Below are positions 3,221 through 45,540 of a stretch of DNA of 50,853 nt, one piece after another. Source of the stretch: a virus. Lineage: Duplodnaviria; Caudoviricetes. The position numbers and the translations under genes are program-made. The notes under the pieces were generated by a model. The model was not told where the DNA came from. It ran no database searches and saw nothing but the letters and a program-made list of their open reading frames with translations. Every line of letters starts with the position of its first letter. The first letter of the stretch is position 1. Location: positions 1-50,853 of IMG/VR virus record IMGVR_UViG_3300037468_000175, one strand, 5' to 3'.

Positions 3221-3388
3221 ATGGCGGCTAAATACGATTATCGGATTGTCCAGATACCGGCAGGATATACGGCGGCACAAATAGAAACCGCCCTTAAGGC
3301 CCAGGGGCAGTTAGGGTGGTTGCTAATTCACATTCAACAAATCGGTACTAATTATTTTGCTGTTTTATTGAAAACACTCTCGTTATGA
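3221..3388 (+). CDS. Small DUF4177-like protein (55 aa, not in ORF track)
   Basis: SD AGGAGG; MAAKYDYRIV...IETALKAQGQLGWLLI resembles the YEY..E..LN..G..GWELV pattern. Confidence 0.5.
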   Translation: MAAKYDYRIVQIPAGYTAAQIETALKAQGQLGWLLIHIQQIGTNYFAVLLKTLSL

Positions 3389-37995: not shown

Positions 37996-38007
37996 TCAGG
38001 AGGTTTT

Positions 38008-38211
38008 ATGTCCACTCCGGTAAGCGGGAGAAGTTTAAGAATTAGTGGGGCGAAGGTCGAAATCCCCGACGACCTTGAATGGCCGAGTTACGATGTCAAG
38101 GTTAAGGTAACGGGCGATATTGTTCAAAGAATTGATAATGACAATCAAGACGGCAAGGTTGAAAGGGTGTTTGTCCTCCGAGCCACCTACGTTGAGGTGG
38201 TCAACGAATAA
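38008..38211 (+). CDS. Hypothetical protein
   Basis: SD AGGAGG. Confidence 0.6.
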   Translation: MSTPVSGRSLRISGAKVEIPDDLEWPSYDVKVKVTGDIVQRIDNDNQDGKVERVFVLRATYVEVVNE

Positions 38212-38233
38212 TGTTATACAATGAAAGCCACCT

Positions 38234-38476
38234 ATGAAAGACCAACAACTCCAGCAAGTAGCTAAAGCCCTGATTGATGCCGAGGATTACAAGACCCACC
38301 TGTTCCAGTACTACATCGAGCGTTACAAGGGCCACCCGCCCCAGATTAACGAGGTAGTCAGTAACTTTTTAGACGACTTATCCCAGTCCCTCACTTTAGT
38401 TTACCAAGCGTATGAGGGGAAGGGGGGTGAGAAAAATGTCGAAAAAGGAAAACAAAGCCAAGAAGGCGGAGTTTAA
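38234..38476 (+). CDS. Hypothetical protein
   Basis: ORF. Confidence 0.5.
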   Translation: MKDQQLQQVAKALIDAEDYKTHLFQYYIERYKGHPPQINEVVSNFLDDLSQSLTLVYQAYEGKGGEKNVEKGKQSQEGGV

Positions 38477-39596
38477 GGTCCGCCAAGTTACAGAACAAGA
38501 GAAAGCCCACGATAGGTTATGGGTAAGGGTAATGCTTGGACTGATGTTGATACTCGGTTTAATTGCCTTATGGTTTTGGGTTATTAGTCCGGCCATAGCT
38601 GTTGAGGTATGTCCTGACGGCGGTGCTTGGCAGAAGGATGATACAAATAACGGGTTTGATGAAACTTGTAACTCCGGAAAGAAAGTCACCCAGATTTGTA
38701 TAAAGGGTGGCACTAATATTGCCTACTACACCACTAACGGAAATGACGGTTGTTGGGCTAGGTCAGGTATTGGAACTAACGAAGGCGATGCTTGGAAGAT
38801 TGGCGATGGACCATCGTGTAAGGATATATCCCACGCTTCTTTTAAGTGTGAGACTGTTTCACCGACTCCTACGCCTACCCCTACCCCAACACCGACTCCG
38901 ACAAAGACTGATGGTGTGTGTGGCAGCGAACCAGAAACTTGCGATGCTGGTACCTGGAAAGAAAAGAAAGATACCGACAAAGAGTACAAGTGGTATTGCG
39001 AGGGGATTAACGGCGGTAAGAAGATCGAGTGCAAAATGGATATACCCGTTTGTGGCGATCTAACTTACACGTGCAACGAGTGCGAGGCAAAACCAACCGA
39101 AGAATACTGCGGAGAATGGAAATATGAATATTGCACAGGCGAGTACAAGTGCGGCTATGAGGATGACTCCTGGTCGTGTGACTGTCCAGTCGAACCGACC
39201 CCAACCCCGACCCAACCTCCCGTGGTCACTACTCAAAGCAAGCCGGAAGGGTGCACACAAAATTGTTCTGCACCAACTTGTGAGGATGCCATACCAGAGC
39301 CAGTAGTTAACCCCCACGTCTACCGTCAAAACGGGACTGCCCTAGTAAAATGGTACCCCAAGCAAGGTGACAAGGTTCATATTTATTGGCGGTTGACTAG
39401 TGCGAGTGATTGGCAACACTCTATAGCTAATAGTCCCAATGATGGGTATGAGGAGATTAAAGAATTAGGAAATGAAGATTGGGTTTTTGGCCTGCAATCG
39501 GTTAACGGATGCCGACCAAACGGAATTGTTAACGCCTCGACTATTACCGAAATAGTTGATGGTGCTTGCCAAGATTGGGTCTTATTCAGACCCTAA
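38436..39596 (+). CDS. Membrane-anchored Cys-rich extracellular protein with PT linkers and FN3-like C-terminus
   Basis: TM/signal segment, (PT)n tracts, many Cys, C-terminal W...SVNGC.P. Confidence 0.65.
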   Translation: MSKKENKAKKAEFKVRQVTEQEKAHDRLWVRVMLGLMLILGLIALWFWVISPAIAVEVCPDGGAWQKDDTNNGFDETCNSGKKVTQICIKGGTNIAYYTTNGNDGCWARSGIGTNEGDAWKIGDGPSCKDISHASFKCETVSPTPTPTPTPTPTPTKTDGVCGSEPETCDAGTWKEKKDTDKEYKWYCEGINGGKKIECKMDIPVCGDLTYTCNECEAKPTEEYCGEWKYEYCTGEYKCGYEDDSWSCDCPVEPTPTPTQPPVVTTQSKPEGCTQNCSAPTCEDAIPEPVVNPHVYRQNGTALVKWYPKQGDKVHIYWRLTSASDWQHSIANSPNDGYEEIKELGNEDWVFGLQSVNGCRPNGIVNASTITEIVDGACQDWVLFRP

Positions 39597-39614
39597 CGCA
39601 CTTTGACAGGGTAA

Positions 39615-39678
39615 GGCAGTTGGGGTTGGGAGCGTATCGTTGAGGCGGGTAATGGAGTTATAAGGTGCGTTTCGGTTT
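39615..39678 (+). ncRNA. Solo GGCA-(GGY/GTY-NN)12 guide-like unit
   Basis: Same grammar as the 41223-42070 array; intergenic; flanked by hairpins. Confidence 0.65.
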
Positions 39679-39721
39679 TTGATAGTGGGGCGTAGTTATA
39701 CGCCCTACCAATCAGGAACTT

Positions 39722-39898
39722 ATGCCAATACAATATTGCGAGATATGCGACCAGTACATTGACCTAGATACAGACGTGGAACATTTTGACGACCACTTAC
39801 CGGAGTATTTTTCTTGGAAGGACGCGTATAAGCATATGTTGAATAGTGCCGATAAGTTGATAGCCGGCCTCAAGGAGTCAAAATCCAATGGCACTTGA
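39722..39898 (+). CDS. Small zinc-finger protein (58 aa, not in ORF track)
   Basis: CEIC...H...H. Confidence 0.5.
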   Translation: MPIQYCEICDQYIDLDTDVEHFDDHLPEYFSWKDAYKHMLNSADKLIAGLKESKSNGT

Positions 39899-40076
39899 AC
39901 GTATAATCCATTGGCTAAAGGGAGAAAAGCCGTTTTCGACGTATTACGTGATGTTTGAAGTAGACGGAGAGATATACACTACCAATGACTTGCCGAAAGA
40001 GATGGCTGACCACCTTGCTACTCAAATAGGGGGGATAGTAATGCCTACGGAGTTACCCAATGAAAAAGAAGTGTGA
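39888..40076 (+). CDS. Hypothetical protein
   Basis: SD AAGGAG. Confidence 0.5.
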   Translation: MALERIIHWLKGEKPFSTYYVMFEVDGEIYTTNDLPKEMADHLATQIGGIVMPTELPNEKEV

Positions 40077-40251
40077 ACACGATTGGCACGAAGACCCGCT
40101 ATTCAAGTCGGGGGCAATTCGGATAGTAGCCGGAACTCCCAAAGCATTAGGGGAGGAAACTATTGACGTATGTAGTGAGTGCGGAGAACGGCGGTACCGG
40201 GTGATTAAGAAGTTGGGTTCGTTAGTTGATATGTACAAAGACACCCTATAA
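40060..40251 (+). CDS. Small zinc-ribbon protein
   Basis: C.H.W...CSECG. Confidence 0.55.
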   Translation: MKKKCEHDWHEDPLFKSGAIRIVAGTPKALGEETIDVCSECGERRYRVIKKLGSLVDMYKDTL

Positions 40252-40296
40252 TATATTTCCTCGAGGGCTTGGGTTATAATACCCTCAAGAAGGGGG

Positions 40297-40494
40297 GTGA
40301 TTTATATTAACACGCGTTTTCAAAACAAATATCTGGACAAAGACGTTAAGCGTATGGTCGAGAAGGGTTATATGGACACCGGTTTAGCCCTGACCAGCGA
40401 TGGTATTCGGTTCTTATGCGAATACGTTTATGAGGTCAACAAAAAGGACATTAGCAAATTGCTCAATGACCAAGACCTCAACAAACCTTACTAG
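40297..40494 (+). CDS. Hypothetical protein
   Basis: SD AAGGGGGGTGA; exact start uncertain. Confidence 0.5.
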   Translation: MIYINTRFQNKYLDKDVKRMVEKGYMDTGLALTSDGIRFLCEYVYEVNKKDISKLLNDQDLNKPY

Positions 40495-40525
40495 CAATTA
40501 GCACTCACAGAAGGGGGGTGATAAT

Positions 40526-41194
40526 ATGGCAGAAATCATCCAGATACCAGCACCAAACATTCAAATGATTGAGGTCGAGATTAAAGGGACTACTCCCTTA
40601 ATGTTCCACAAATGGTCGGAAAAGGCCAAGGCACAGATAAGGGATAAGCAACAGAAAAAGGCCAAGACCGGCAGACCCAAGAGAGAGCCGGAGGTCGAGT
40701 ACCTGAACTCGTTTTACTATACGCAAGACGGGTTCGTCTCTTTCCCCGCATTGGCGATTAAACAAGCAATTGTGGGGGCGGCTCGGTCAATTGATGGCTT
40801 ACAAATGACGATTATCCGGGGCAACATCTTCGTCGTAGGCGACGTTGATGGCCTGGTACCCGTCTTGGTTGACGGCAAGCCCGTCAAACCCAGTAAGAAG
40901 CTGACACCAGCTAACGGTACTCAAGGTGAAAACATTTTCGCGATTGATACGGCCAACACTAACTTGGTAATGATGGAACATATGGTCAGGGTTGCTCGAG
41001 GGGCAGCCGACCTGCGTTACCGAGGGGCGATTAAGTCTTGGTCAATGAACTTGATGGTCAAGTTTAACGCCGATATGTTCAGCCAAGAACAAGTCGTGAA
41101 TCTCATCCAAACCGCAGGTTTCTCTCAAGGACTCGGCGAATGGAGGCCGGAACGGAACGGCGACAGCGGAACATTTGAGGTCGTACAATCTTAA
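40526..41194 (+). CDS. RAMP/Cas7-like RNA-binding effector (Vipr-like)
   Basis: N-terminal strand IEVEIKGTTPLMFH; C-terminal Gly-rich loop AGFSQGLGEWRPERNGDSGTFEV; directly upstream of the pentamer array. Confidence 0.7.
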   Translation: MAEIIQIPAPNIQMIEVEIKGTTPLMFHKWSEKAKAQIRDKQQKKAKTGRPKREPEVEYLNSFYYTQDGFVSFPALAIKQAIVGAARSIDGLQMTIIRGNIFVVGDVDGLVPVLVDGKPVKPSKKLTPANGTQGENIFAIDTANTNLVMMEHMVRVARGAADLRYRGAIKSWSMNLMVKFNADMFSQEQVVNLIQTAGFSQGLGEWRPERNGDSGTFEVVQS

Positions 41195-41195
41195 A

Positions 41196-41226
41196 TGCCT
41201 GGGGCGCCTGCCCGCCCCACAAGGCA
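41196..41226 (+). promoter_or_regulatory. Leader hairpin of the guide array
   Basis: TGGGGCG-CCTGCC-CGCCCCA stem-loop, extendable by TGCCT/AGGCA. Confidence 0.6.
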
Positions 41227-42070
41227 GTCGTGGAATGGAGTTGTACGATTCGGAGAGGCGGGGGAGGATTGCCAGTAGTGGTTACGAGAGGCCCGGTGCG
41301 TTGTCTGGGGCTCGTTGGGGCGGTGAAATGGTTTGGCAGTAAAGGAATGTTATGTCGGGTACCGGACGTATTTGGTTGGTTTGATTAGGCAGTAGGGGAG
41401 AGTTTTGGTTGGTAAGGTTGGAACGTCTTGTTGAGGTATGGAGTGCCAGTAGAGGAGAGGCAATGTACGGCGGGGCGGGGAGATGAGTTGCTTAGTATGG
41501 CGAGTCACGGCGGGGCAGTCGGGGATGGGTGCGTGACGGAGTGTGTAGGTCGGGCAGTATAGGTGGGTCGAGGCATAATGGGGTTCGTGGCGGTAAGGTC
41601 GGTACGGCAGTCAAGGACCGGATAGGTGGGGTTCGGAAAGGCAATCCGAGTCGGGGTATGTTAGGGCAGTCGTGGCAGTTCACGTCGAGGCCGTATCAGG
41701 CGAAATAAGGTGAGGCGGGGCCAGTTTTGGCAGTAGGGGTAAGGCACGGCTTGGACATTAAGCGGTGGGGTGCCGAATGGCGAGGACTGGCAGTTAGGGA
41801 ACGGAGTGTTAAGGTGTTGTTCGCCTGGGCTGTAAAGGTGTGTATCGGTACTGCAAGGCACTGTTTGGCCGGGACGGGTTGGCCGAGGTCGGGCAGTTAT
41901 GGGGGGCACGGTTCTGGTAGGCAGGTCTAGGAAAGGCAGTCGGGGAGAGTATGGGAGGTATTGGGAACGTAATGGTGTGTTACCGCGAGGTGAGGCAAGG
42001 TTTCGCCAGGATGGAATGGTTGGGCAGTAATGGGTGGTACGGTTGGACAGGTTCGTCAATTTAAGGCAGG
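41223..42070 (+). ncRNA. Array of ~15 guide-like RNA units: GGCA/GCCA delimiter + 7-17 (GGY/GTY/NGY)-NN pentamers
   Basis: GGCAGT/GCCAGT at 41223, 41271, 41335, 41388, 41445, 41514, 41553, 41606, 41665, 41729, 41789, 41892, 41935, 42023 (GGCTGT at 41828, GGCAGG at 42065); strong 5-nt G periodicity; no credible ORF. Confidence 0.85.
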
Positions 42071-42132
42071 GCTTGGTTATGTACCTAGACTAGATTATGA
42101 ATATAATCAAATTAGGAAGGGAGGTGATTCAA

Positions 42133-42552
42133 ATGGATGAAGTAATCAATATCTTAAAAGCAATTGAACAACGTGATGGCGTTCTCCGACCGGAAGTGTT
42201 GGTGGACGAGGCGTCTCAGTCTTCCCATCCCTTACACGGGTACTTTGAATGGGAGGATACGGAAGCCGCCCGCAAGTGGCGCATACATCAAGCCAGGACT
42301 ATGATTATCAAGGTCAAGGTGAGAATAGCTGAAACCACGACCCAGGCATTTCACAACGTCAGGGTCGAGATAAACAAAGTCCCGGTGAGGGGCTATTTTT
42401 CTACCGAACGGGTCTTATCCGATAAGGATATGCTCGGCCAAGTCCTAGCCAGGGCGTTGGATGAATTGGAATACTGGCAGAAAAAATACGAGACTATCAA
42501 AGAATTGGCCGGTATTATCAACCACGATGTCCTCAGCCAAGTCAAAAAATGA
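42133..42552 (+). CDS. Conserved accessory protein of the array locus
   Basis: SD AAGGGAGGTGA; G.L.PE..VD.A....HPLH..FEW.D..AA..WR..QAR..I motif. Confidence 0.65.
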   Translation: MDEVINILKAIEQRDGVLRPEVLVDEASQSSHPLHGYFEWEDTEAARKWRIHQARTMIIKVKVRIAETTTQAFHNVRVEINKVPVRGYFSTERVLSDKDMLGQVLARALDELEYWQKKYETIKELAGIINHDVLSQVKK

Positions 42553-42866
42553 ACAAACTCCAACGGATTCTCTACCAAGTGGCGCACCGTGAATTGGGTG
42601 AATTGGAAGCCGAACGGCAGATTGAGGCGTTATATTCCAGTCAGTATTTGGAAGGAATTAGGGTGGGAATGAAACCGCCCAAAGAGTACGAGTGTTTATG
42701 CGCCAGGTGTGGCCACCTCTTGTTTCCGCAAGCCGATACAGATAAACTAAATGGCATAACCGCAACAAAGGGTACTTGTCAGCGGTGTGGGACTAAGGAC
42801 ACATTCTTAGTTCCGGTCAATGATTTTATGTATGCTAGCGGAGAAGGAGGCGGTGTATGGGATTAA
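42549..42866 (+). CDS. Zinc-ribbon protein
   Basis: CARCG...CQRCG. Confidence 0.55.
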   Translation: MNKLQRILYQVAHRELGELEAERQIEALYSSQYLEGIRVGMKPPKEYECLCARCGHLLFPQADTDKLNGITATKGTCQRCGTKDTFLVPVNDFMYASGEGGGVWD

Positions 42867-43606
42867 AGGAGTATCGGGATATAGAGTCGCTACACATTTG
42901 GGAAAAGAATCCCAGGACTATATCCCAAAAAGACTTTGGCCGTCTCAAGAAGCAACTGAAAAAGTTAGGGCAGTATAAGCCATTGGTCATTACCGAGGAT
43001 GGTACGGTTTTGGGCGGTAATATGCGCCTCAAGGCGTACCAAGAGATGGGAATTAAGGACATCTGGGTCTCGGTAGTCGAGGCCGATACGGAAGTTAAGA
43101 AAGTCGAGTACGCCTTATCGGATAATGACCGAGCCGGTACGTACATTGAAGATGATTTGTTGGCTTTGGTGAAGGATTTAGACCTGGACTTGGACTTATA
43201 CGCGGTAGACCTGGGAGAGATGTCTTCCTTATCAGATTTGTTCAAGGACCAAGAGGTGTTCGATGAGGACTACAGTGACAACCTCGGGGAGATAGTGTAC
43301 GAACCGAAGGAGACCCACCACAAAGTCTCGGATTTGTACCAACCGGACAATAAATACGACGCCGATATCGAGAGTCTGGAGAACGAGGAATTGAAACAGA
43401 TGCTTCGGGCCAGGGCGGCTAACTTCCATAACTTCAACTACGAAAAGATTGCCGATTATTATGCCTACCAGGCGACACCGGAGGAACAGCGGGTGTTTGA
43501 GAAACTGGCGTTGGTCCTCTTGGACCGGAATAAACTTATCGAGAATGGCTTTTCTAAACTCATAGACAAGATTGACCTGGGAGAGACAGAATATGAAGCT
43601 GAGTGA
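42857..43606 (+). CDS. ParB-like nuclease domain protein
   Basis: W.KNPR.I, L...G..KPLVI, GGNMRL.A, DN..AG. Confidence 0.8.
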   Translation: MGLKEYRDIESLHIWEKNPRTISQKDFGRLKKQLKKLGQYKPLVITEDGTVLGGNMRLKAYQEMGIKDIWVSVVEADTEVKKVEYALSDNDRAGTYIEDDLLALVKDLDLDLDLYAVDLGEMSSLSDLFKDQEVFDEDYSDNLGEIVYEPKETHHKVSDLYQPDNKYDADIESLENEELKQMLRARAANFHNFNYEKIADYYAYQATPEEQRVFEKLALVLLDRNKLIENGFSKLIDKIDLGETEYEAE

Positions 43607-44453
43607 AGCGTATGAGAAACTTAACACCATTTACATCATCTCCAAAGGCAGACCCAGGTGCCTGACGGCTCGGACACTAACCAGGATTGGCTACCCAGGC
43701 CAATGGTTTATTGTCTGCGGCAATAATGACAATACTATCGAGAAGTACCAACAGAATTGGGGTAAGGACAAGATACTGATATTTGATTGGTATGAGGAAG
43801 TGAAACATACGGATTTTATGGACAACCTGGGAGTTGAGAAGTATTCGTCTGGGGCGGCACCAGTCAGGAACGCCACGATGGAGATTAGCCGTCAGCGGGG
43901 AGAGATACGGCATTGGCAACTGGATGACGACTATCCGGCTTTCGTTAAGTTCAATACCAAACGAAAGAAGTATGACCGGGTTAGGGATGGGAGGGTACTC
44001 CAGTTTGAAATGGCGAAGATTGCCCTATTCGGCTATGAGGCCGACCTGACTAACGTGGGGTACCAACCCACCTCCAATACCTACCCCGACCAAGCATTTA
44101 ATTTCACCAAGCGGGTGTTCAACGCCCATAACCTACCAAGCGACCCGGATAAGTTTGTCCGGTGGCGTGCCCGAATGAATGACGATACGGTGAACGCTTT
44201 AGATGTATTGGTGGGCGGTGGTTATGAGATATCGGTCAATTATTTGGGAATGGGTACCATCAAAACACAGACAGAAACCGGGGGGAATACTGACCTGTAT
44301 AAGGACAACGGAACGGTTATGAAGACCGCCTATGCGGTTATGAGGTCGCCTAAATCCGTCTCTTTAGTGATTAAGTTCAAGCGTTACCACCACCAGAACA
44401 ATTGGGCTCCAGTTTCGCCCAAACTGATAAGAGACCATTATGCCCGATTATGA
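43593..44453 (+). CDS. TET/JBP-associated (GREB1-like) glycosyltransferase
   Basis: IYIISKGRP, GA...RN, HWQLDDD, W..R.N.D, Q...GGNTD.Y, RYHH..N. Confidence 0.7.
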   Translation: MKLSEAYEKLNTIYIISKGRPRCLTARTLTRIGYPGQWFIVCGNNDNTIEKYQQNWGKDKILIFDWYEEVKHTDFMDNLGVEKYSSGAAPVRNATMEISRQRGEIRHWQLDDDYPAFVKFNTKRKKYDRVRDGRVLQFEMAKIALFGYEADLTNVGYQPTSNTYPDQAFNFTKRVFNAHNLPSDPDKFVRWRARMNDDTVNALDVLVGGGYEISVNYLGMGTIKTQTETGGNTDLYKDNGTVMKTAYAVMRSPKSVSLVIKFKRYHHQNNWAPVSPKLIRDHYARL

Positions 44454-45540
44454 TTATCTTATTGTAGGTGCCGGACTTTTTGGTTCAACTTTTGCTTATC
44501 AAATGACTAAGCAGGGGAAGCGGTGTCTGGTGATTGACCAGCGGTCGCATACCGGAGGCAACTGCCACACCAGCAACCAGGATGGGATTATTGTCCACGA
44601 TTACGGAGCTCATATCTTCCATACCAGCAACCAACGGGTATGGGATTTTGTTAACCAATTCGGGGAGTTCAATCATTATATCAACCAACCTATCGCTATG
44701 GTGGAAGGTGTACCTTACAATATGCCGTTCAATATGAATATGTTTAGCCGGGTGTTCGGGGTGACCAAACCGAGTGAGGCATTCGATATTATCGAGGAGG
44801 AGACGAAGCCGTATCAAACCTTAGTACCGAAGTCATTGGAGGACCAAGCCCTCCAGATGGTCGGCAAAACCATTTTTGAAAAGTTCATCAGGGGATACAG
44901 CGAAAAGCAATGGGGTAGCCCCTGTTCCGACTTGCCGGCCAGTTTTATCAAGCGGTTGCCGTTGCGGTTCACTTACGATAATAATTATTATGACGATACT
45001 TACCAGGGCATACCAATAGACGGATACTCCGGCCTATTTGACCGGATGCTCAGGGGAATAGAGGTGGAGGTGAACGTCAAATACAATGAGGTAAAGAGCC
45101 ACATTGAGGCCAAGAAAACTATTTACACCGGAATGATTGACGAGTTCTTTGACTTCCAGTTCGGTTCACCGGAGTACCGGAGTCTGCATTTCGTTCACCT
45201 GTATAAGGATTGCTACAACTACCAAGGGTGTGCTGTGATTAACTACCCAGGTCTTGATGTGCCGTACACCCGCAGTATCGAGCATAAGCATTTCGCTTTG
45301 GACACCACCTCACCGACCACGATAGTCACGTATGAGTTCCCCGTACCTTACAAGGAAGGTCTTATCCCCTATTATCCGGTAGGCAATAGCCGAGATGTCA
45401 AGATTTATGACAAATATTTGACATTAGCTTCACAGATGTCAAATATAGTTTTTGCTGGTAGATTGGGAAGTTACCAGTACTACGATATGGATGACACGAT
45501 TGACCACGCCTTACAGTTAGCCGATAAGGAATTGCAATGA
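44440..45540 (+). CDS. glf: UDP-galactopyranose mutase
   Basis: YLIVGAGLFG, GGNC, H.YGAHIFHT, Y..KQWG, RLPLR..YDNNY..D.YQGIP, YTR.IEHKHF, PYYP, GRLG.YQYYDMD. Confidence 0.95.
   Translation: MPDYDYLIVGAGLFGSTFAYQMTKQGKRCLVIDQRSHTGGNCHTSNQDGIIVHDYGAHIFHTSNQRVWDFVNQFGEFNHYINQPIAMVEGVPYNMPFNMNMFSRVFGVTKPSEAFDIIEEETKPYQTLVPKSLEDQALQMVGKTIFEKFIRGYSEKQWGSPCSDLPASFIKRLPLRFTYDNNYYDDTYQGIPIDGYSGLFDRMLRGIEVEVNVKYNEVKSHIEAKKTIYTGMIDEFFDFQFGSPEYRSLHFVHLYKDCYNYQGCAVINYPGLDVPYTRSIEHKHFALDTTSPTTIVTYEFPVPYKEGLIPYYPVGNSRDVKIYDKYLTLASQMSNIVFAGRLGSYQYYDMDDTIDHALQLADKELQ

Follow-up and report, generated by a model that had tools for sequence, protein, structure and literature searches.

A detached guide-like unit beside a phage VIPR module and its predicted target in homologues of the neighbouring gene

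A short intergenic tract in a Caudoviricetes phage genome (IMG/VR record IMGVR_UViG_3300037468_000175) raises the question of whether it is a guide RNA separated from the array that it resembles and, if so, at what it is aimed. The window, meaning the whole 50,853-bp stretch analysed, is the complete phage genome with direct terminal repeats. A sequence-only reading had described an intergenic GGCA header followed by 12 pentamers, flanked by an ACCCT/AGGGT stem and a GGGCGTA/TACGCCC hairpin and lying 1.6 kb upstream of a pentameric array, and all of these elements are present as read. The unit is probably a detached guide RNA (vrRNA) of the phage's own Viral Interference Programmable Repeat (VIPR) system, with a predicted target in rival phages' alleles of the gene that adjoins it. 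The grammar, header and register of the unit, the homology and fold of the Vipr protein, a conserved partner gene and target matches specific to a one-nucleotide skip were all computed here.

VIPR is a CRISPR-related DNA silencer described in bioRxiv preprints of 2026 (10.64898/2026.04.26.720920, 10.64898/2026.04.26.720927, 10.64898/2026.10.15.759431). According to these preprints, Vipr forms filaments in which each subunit binds one pentamer made of a GGY scaffold and a free dinucleotide (NN); the dinucleotide pairs with DNA, each third base of the target, in most cases the codon wobble position, is passed over, and rival phages and satellites are thereby silenced at the level of transcription. 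The preprints define seven VIPR types, with 'related' repeat consensuses.

The grammar of the detached unit is that of the array. Among the 149 array pentamers, which were parsed from the headers with each tract begun at the G of CAG and with register errors possible, position 1 is G in 70%, position 2 is G in 48% and T in 33%, position 3 is A in 32% and T in 33% (C+T 48%), and positions 4-5 are variable. The detached tract has the same scaffold of G, then G or T, then mostly T or A, ahead of two free bases. Its pentamers read GTTGG, GGTTG, GGAGC, GTATC, GTTGA, GGCGG, GTAAT, GGAGT, TATAA, GGTGC, GTTTC and GGTTT, with G at position 1 in 11 of 12 and G or T at position 2 in 11 of 12; the free dinucleotides of units 1-12 are GG, TG, GC, TC, GA, GG, AT, GT, AA, GC, TC and TT. 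A log-odds matrix for the three scaffold positions, derived from the array pentamers and summed over 12 units, gave its top score in the genome, both strands included, at 39619 (25.3), in precise agreement with the register that the header sets. The best array window scored 22.6, and the rest of the genome on both strands had a mean of -13.0, a standard deviation of 6.4 and a maximum of 15.9. These 12 in-register units agree with the published description of a VIPR guide as at least four pentamers, typically 9-16, with 'GGY or a related consensus' and hypervariable NN.

The header points in the same direction. Counted over the window, GGCAGTNNNGG occurs 14 times against 1.26 expected (about 11-fold), a number that 0 of 100 shuffles reached; 12 copies lie in the array, one in the detached unit and one in a small open reading frame (ORF) at 3306. 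This last copy (GGCAGTTAGGG, 3306-3316, within a 55-aa ORF at 3221-3388) was set aside as a chance occurrence, since no periodic tract follows it and 1.26 copies are expected in any case. In the array each header shares its G with the pentamer that follows, of which it is base 1, and the last G of the unit's GGCAG is likewise base 1 of its first pentamer, an overlap of 1 nt. 'Staggered' arrays in which neighbouring vrRNAs overlap by 1 nt are mentioned in a preprint figure legend (10.64898/2026.04.26.720920, fig. S18).

The array itself occupies most of an ORF-free stretch (41195-42097) that is 42% G and 15% C and contains no long ORF, and the autocorrelation of G in the array peaks at lags of 5, 10, 15 and 20 (0.23 at lag 5 and 0.25 at lag 10). 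Tandem Repeats Finder reported no tandem array at the locus, and the sole periodic unit there is 5 nt long, not the 20-40 nt direct repeats with unique spacers and cas genes that define a CRISPR array. A promoter-like site (GCGACA-18-TACAAT, 9/12 matches) was observed at 41160-41189, in the very end of vipr and just ahead of the array; the region is no richer in such sites than its shuffles.

What the unit may be aimed at follows from its free dinucleotides. The sequence-only reading had decoded these as the first two letters of successive codons, which is the published one-nucleotide skip rule of VIPR, and had obtained a peptide, G[CW]AS[DE]G[IM]V[KN]AS[FL], that it did not recognize. This peptide is the conserved GCA(S/A/T)DGIVNAS motif of the homologues of the adjacent upstream gene, which encodes a 394-aa protein. 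Under the skip rule, 11 of the 12 dinucleotides give the first two codon letters of G-C-A-S-D-G-I-V-N-A-S, and the homologues have this motif close to their C-terminus.

Three homologues in other phage contigs match the 11-unit guide at 21 of 22 bases (G001), 21 of 22 (G002) and 22 of 22 (L040); with all 12 units the figures are 21/24 for both G001 and G002 and 23/24 for L040. The viral contigs G001 and G002 were retrieved solely by protein homology to the 394-aa gene (65% identity over the aligned C-terminal region and 71% within the C-terminal domain for G001; 55% for G002), and in both the match falls at the aligned homologous position. A score of 21/22 in these two contigs was reached by none of 500 shuffled guides, for which the maximum was 17, and skips of 0, 2 or 3 gave null scores at the targets, so that the match is specific to a skip of 1. 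The metagenome contig L040 was retrieved with a 20-base gapped skip-1 sub-pattern, and its site is close to the end of a 290-aa ORF sharing 35-39% identity with the 394-aa gene. All three targets are read in frame on the coding strand, the wobble base being the one skipped, and spell G-C-A-(S/T/A)-D-G-I-V-N-A-S. A guide pattern with 21 specified bases found only G001 and G002 in the viral collection of 2.9 million contigs, and the motif GC[AS][AST]DG[IV][VI][NST]AS is present in 10 of 14 further protein homologues. Because G001 and G002 share few ORFs with this phage (7 and 3, respectively, at 32-65% identity), the predicted target is a cassette common to otherwise distant phages. No Vipr match was found in G001, a contig that is 43% complete, and this is not evidence of absence.

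Gapped searches gave few other candidates. The exact 24-base gapped pattern had no occurrence in viral, genome or metagenome contigs, and the pattern of units 3-12 had none in viral contigs. Units 2-10 had eight matches in genome contigs, in unrelated metagenome-assembled genomes and one Pseudomonas (18-20/24), and these were rejected as chance in view of their lack of homology to the 394-aa gene (best tblastn E 0.08). The metagenome contig L039 (22/24), the only one besides L040 that the 20-base sub-pattern retrieved, with no ORF of at least 60 aa at the site and no homology, was likewise attributed to chance.

When the gapped search included the phage's own genome, the best match began at 39507, within the upstream gene and 110 nt upstream of the unit, at 18/22 (82%) with 11 units and 18/24 (75%) with 12; 18/22 was reached by 1 of 500 shuffled guides. 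The four mismatches of the own allele all fall in units 3-5, where it has RPN instead of A-(S/A/T)-D, and RPN is absent from all 17 other family members examined (18 with the own allele). The VIPR preprints describe native guides as free of self-targeting at an NN match of 80% or more, and one of them reports self scores below non-self scores (10.64898/2026.10.15.759431), a pattern with which the lower match of the own site agrees. The own allele is presumably spared by the guide, to judge from these mismatches.

The protein that would carry such a guide is encoded 0.8 kb downstream. A profile built from 22 homologues of the 222-aa product matched one solved structure, PDB 36pp_D ('SUSP1 Vipr protein', E 2.7e-12), with the hidden Markov model alignment covering residues 51-187 of SUSP1 Vipr. 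The AlphaFold2 (AF2) model (pLDDT 83) has its best fold matches in type VII Cas7 and type III Csm3 (E 1e-6 to 1e-4). Of the SUSP1 contact residues, as named in 10.64898/2026.04.26.720927, R138 aligns to an invariant Y-R and D177-W178-R179 to E-W-R. The protein has 26 relatives in viral contigs, and when 23 of these loci were examined (three near-duplicates were left out), each had a strongly 5-nt-periodic G-rich or C-rich tract near vipr, within about 2 kb, placed downstream, upstream or split by genes. The sequence-only reading had envisaged that guides can be dispersed, and the detached unit near the RAMP-like vipr gene, together with this variety of placements in related loci, bears it out. 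The use in trans that it also envisaged would here be by the Vipr encoded 0.8 kb downstream. Downstream of the array, a 151-aa ORF with a FEWED motif is likely vap, judging by its conservation beside vipr, which it adjoins in 10 of 28 related loci searched, including Mycobacterium phage Saal (gp52) and Gordonia phage UmaThurman (gp41). No cas1/cas2 or nuclease was seen among the ORFs searched. The positions of the unit and of the surrounding features are collected in the table below.

Table. Features of the detached unit and of the VIPR module in the 50,853-bp window
Feature	Position	Strand	Basis or remark
394-aa gene directly 5' of the unit	38412-39596	+	ORF; homologues hold the predicted target site
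Own copy of the target site, codons G-C-R-P-N-G-I-V-N-A-S-T	39507-39541	+	best own-genome guide match; alignment places it at the homologous position
Gap (125 nt)	between ORF 38412-39596 and ORF 39722-39898	+	houses the detached guide unit
5' stem, ACCCT / AGGGT	39590-39594 / 39608-39612 (span 39590-39612)	+	sequence; overlaps the stop codon of the upstream gene; ends 2 nt before the header
Header GGCAG	39615-39619 (GGCA 39615-39618)	+	same punctuation starts or ends every array unit
Guide tract, 12 in-register pentamers	39619-39678	+	array-derived scaffold score; target matches
3' hairpin, GGGCGTA/TACGCCC	39688-39705	+	sequence; RNAfold extends it to a 10-bp stem, GUGGGGCGUA / UACGCCCUAC, 39685-39708, loop GUUA
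vipr, 222 aa, Cas7/RAMP-like	40526-41194	+	profile match to PDB 36pp_D; phrog_4652; no Pfam family
Main vrRNA array	41195-42075	+	about 18 G[GC]CA[GA]T headers punctuating 149 pentamers
Candidate vap, 151 aa, FEWED motif	42097-42552	+	phrog_15946; adjoins vipr in related loci

The detached header sits 1608 nt upstream of the first array header (41223). Between the unit and vipr are four small unrelated ORFs, which are not conserved in the related loci. The region around the unit (39585-39725) folds strongly in RNAfold, with a minimum free energy of -55.8 kcal/mol (z -5.7). The minimum-energy fold pairs GACCCUAAC with the first pentamers and not ACCCT with AGGGT, which leaves the 5' stem uncertain. 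The 3' hairpin may serve as a tail, as a processing element or to stabilise the RNA; it has no U-run behind it, the terminator scan did not call it, and the array units have no such tail. A second hairpin (GGGGCG...CGCCCC, 41199-41218), just past the stop codon of vipr and 4 nt before the first array header, resembles that of the detached unit (GGGGCGTA...TACGCCCT), and the two may represent a shared boundary or processing element. General scans of this DNA were uneventful: Rfam at gathering thresholds gave no family and a tRNA scan no tRNA in the window, blastn of 38000-43000 gave no match among cultured phages, and contigs from four DNA runs showed only the same phage, at low depth and with no informative variants at the unit.

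The following sequence of events would connect these features. Because no promoter-like site precedes it, the unit would be read through from the upstream gene and is probably transcribed with the rightward operon as a 3' trailer of the 394-aa gene. The transcript may then be trimmed at the GGCAG header, with the 3' hairpin protecting the RNA, and coated by some 11-12 Vipr subunits, one for each pentamer, supplied by vipr. Each subunit would hide the three scaffold bases and expose the two free ones, which by the published rule would pair with the first two letters of consecutive codons while the wobble base is skipped. Read in this manner, the guide would recognize GCASDGIVNAS near the 3' end of the adjacent gene's homologues in other phages, and its binding would be expected to block transcription of the target gene and of the operon that follows it in a rival, whether co-infecting or resident. 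The own copy, differing at three neighbouring codons, would escape if four clustered mismatches are sufficient protection.

It is possible, as a tentative extension that we would not yet favour, that the guide and the mismatched own allele act as a linked 'poison-antidote' cassette. The two lie less than 120 nt apart and are probably on one transcript; the guide would silence the orthologous locus and operon in relatives with a GCA(S/A/T)DGIVNAS allele, the own RPN allele would escape, and their linkage would keep recombination from separating them. If this is true, VIPR guides can act as drivers of allele replacement between related phages, and the discrimination of self from non-self rests on a few non-synonymous changes that a wobble-skipping code cannot ignore.

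Several observations weigh against reading the unit as a detached vrRNA aimed at rivals. A strict GG[C/T]NN scaffold is found in only 4 of its 12 units, and its strict 10-unit GGY score (20/30) is no better than that of several coding sites (maximum elsewhere 21), so the call on the unit depends on the relaxed scaffold of this phage itself. Silencing in SUSP1 was lost when GGY was changed (10.64898/2026.04.26.720920), and with GGY at 4 of 12 units the Vipr of this phage would need a looser pocket. No promoter-like site was found ahead of the unit. On the target side, the 22/22 match of L040 is not an independent test of the skip rule, this contig having been found with a skip-1 pattern, and unit 12 (TT) matches fully in none of the three targets. 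The own site, at 82% with 11 units, sits at the published 80% cut-off, and a literature search for the mismatch tolerance of VIPR found no statement of it. Lastly, 14 parsed array guides gave no match above the shuffled null in the own genome or the three target contigs, and two array-guide patterns had no occurrence in viral contigs; the skip rule is therefore supported here by one guide only.

The nearness of the own site suggests an alternative in which the unit is a working vrRNA whose real target is the upstream gene or operon of this phage itself, acting by feedback in cis on the 394-aa gene and on what follows it, vipr included, while the better matches in relatives reflect family conservation. 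The homologous site 110 nt upstream is indeed the best match in the own genome, at the 80% threshold and rarely equalled by shuffled guides. Against such feedback, the foreign alleles match better, RPN at the mismatched codons is unique to the own allele among the 18 family members, and the self match over 12 units is 75% where the preprints report no native self-targeting at 80% or above and self scores below non-self; cis feedback is regarded as rather improbable. It also seems unlikely that the unit is a decayed or silent remnant, that is, a former guide that has ceased to be transcribed, processed or loaded. No other position in the genome, array windows included, conforms as well to the scaffold, the 12 units stand in one register behind an intact header, and the 22 informative bases match a homologue of 35% identity perfectly, which would be hard to keep without selection. 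Decay would nonetheless be compatible with the lack of an own promoter or canonical terminator, with a scaffold looser than GGY (4/12 strict), with the four unrelated small ORFs that separate the unit from vipr and with the existence of a relative of the upstream gene that has no unit.

It is very hard to credit that the tract has nothing to do with VIPR and is a G-rich stretch arisen by chance between genes, or else a common structural element, for example a terminator or an attenuator. The strong folding of the region (z -5.7) would suit a structural element, and one header motif elsewhere, that at 3306, is indeed a chance match inside an ORF. Neither version accounts for a header and a top-ranked periodic tract in exact register, or for matches of 21-22/22 that are confined to the published skip rule and to homologues of the adjacent gene. 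Other roles for a G-rich periodic tract were considered (a TRAP- or CsrA-like protein sponge RNA, an iteron or R-loop origin, a cluster of primase sites and a G-quadruplex tract) and were dropped given the Vipr homology and the target matches. A detached vrRNA directed at rivals' alleles thus appears to be the best account of the unit.

The product of the upstream gene has an N-terminal membrane anchor, a Cys-rich region, PT linkers and a C-terminal FN3-like domain; the FN3-like assignment is only a lead, and a Pfam scan of the 394-aa protein gave no family above the cutoff. In one homologue (P0013) the place of the PT linkers is taken by collagen triple-helix repeats (PF01391, E 1.5e-6), a sign that an extended stalk, exposed at the surface, may precede the conserved C-terminal domain. 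The suggestion in the sequence-only reading that such guides might be mobile found no support: the single observation bearing on it is a relative of the upstream gene (L030) that lacks the unit behind it, which indicates gain or loss and not mobility.

The wider Vipr family offers further observations. Cultured actinophages with the same Vipr family include Gordonia phage UmaThurman (gp39) and Mycobacterium phage Saal (gp51), both with period-5 G-rich tracts alongside; that of Saal lies in the gap between gp50 and gp51 (L028, about 2501-2800). In UmaThurman, gp40 (L029, 3628-3951) is annotated as protein-coding, shows a period-5 power of 23 with almost no period-3 signal, and is probably a misannotated vrRNA array. 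A Vipr subclade in L009-L026 (for example L015, 6571-7155) terminates in ...ALGWGRFERV, with EGRPE replacing the E/D-W-R G-loop, and its arrays are far more regular, with GGC/GGT-NN pentamers and GGCAGG punctuation. At another locus (L006) the punctuation is GTCAGAT, and header and scaffold seem to co-vary with the Vipr protein. The period-5 tracts of L007 (3616-3940 and 4761-4825) are C-rich on the vipr strand, so these arrays would be read from the opposite strand. Just past the VIPR module of the present phage, the region 42857-45540 encodes a ParB-like protein, a TET-associated glycosyltransferase (PF20691, E 3e-16) and a phrog_9677 protein, and looks like a DNA base-hypermodification module.

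The closest known system is the type II VIPR of Escherichia phage SUSP1 (Vipr, vap1 and vrRNAs; PDB 36pp). Both systems have a small Cas7-like Vipr, homologous between them (E 2.7e-12), and guides of about 9-16 pentamers that combine a fixed three-base scaffold with two free bases. Both also follow the one-nucleotide skip with the wobble base passed over, with targets in rival mobile elements, which in the present case are predicted. The placement of the guides is similar as well, one vrRNA standing apart upstream of the genes and the others in an array; in SUSP1, according to the VIPR preprints, one lies upstream of the genes and three downstream. In contrast to the GGY of SUSP1, the scaffold here is G, then G or T, then mostly A or T; the array units are short and butt-joined at GGCAG, whereas those of SUSP1 each carry a long pseudoknot tail. 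Four unrelated small ORFs moreover come between the detached unit and vipr, the genes are ordered vipr-array-vap, and the protein is only distantly related. One-base overlaps at unit boundaries and a third scaffold position that is not restricted to pyrimidines recur in the 'staggered' arrays and alternative consensuses (NNNGG, YNNNG, NNNNG) of other VIPR types.

The unit had also been called a solo guide, which is apt in that it stands apart from the array; it is not solo in the published sense. In 10.64898/2026.10.15.759431, solo vrRNAs are reported from F5 satellites and from 346 VIPR-null SUSP1-family phages, and are defined by having no vipr on the contig, or none within 20 kb. Here vipr starts at 40526, only 818 nt past the hairpin of the unit. 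The likeness to published solo vrRNAs lies in a single guide in an intergenic gap, with a predicted target in relatives and a self score below the non-self score; the difference, besides the vipr gene 0.8 kb away, is that the predicted target is the rivals' allele of the guide's own neighbour gene and not vipr, a vrRNA or a satellite. The resemblance to the CRISPR RNA of Class 1 systems (types I, III and VII) on its Cas7 backbone is more general: the protein fold is the same, one subunit is bound per fixed step of RNA, and flipped bases are excluded from pairing. The step here is 5 nt with 3 hidden, in contrast to 6 nt with 1 hidden in CRISPR, and the guide is noncontiguous, with no repeat-spacer array.

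The vrRNA as a kind of guide, its detached position and solo guides are thus already published; what is added here is a concrete predicted target and a guide that lies beside a mismatched own allele. Natural VIPR targets are known for a few clades (SUSP1, P. fulva and types III and V). The Vipr of this phage belongs to a distant clade that includes Mycobacterium and Gordonia phages, and the predicted target of its guide obeys the same one-nucleotide skip and wobble logic, which suggests that the skip rule extends far past the systems in which it was tested, and does so even where the scaffold is relaxed. A guide set next to a presumably resistant allele of the neighbouring gene provides a testable model of how VIPR may be aimed at relatives without hitting the phage that carries it.

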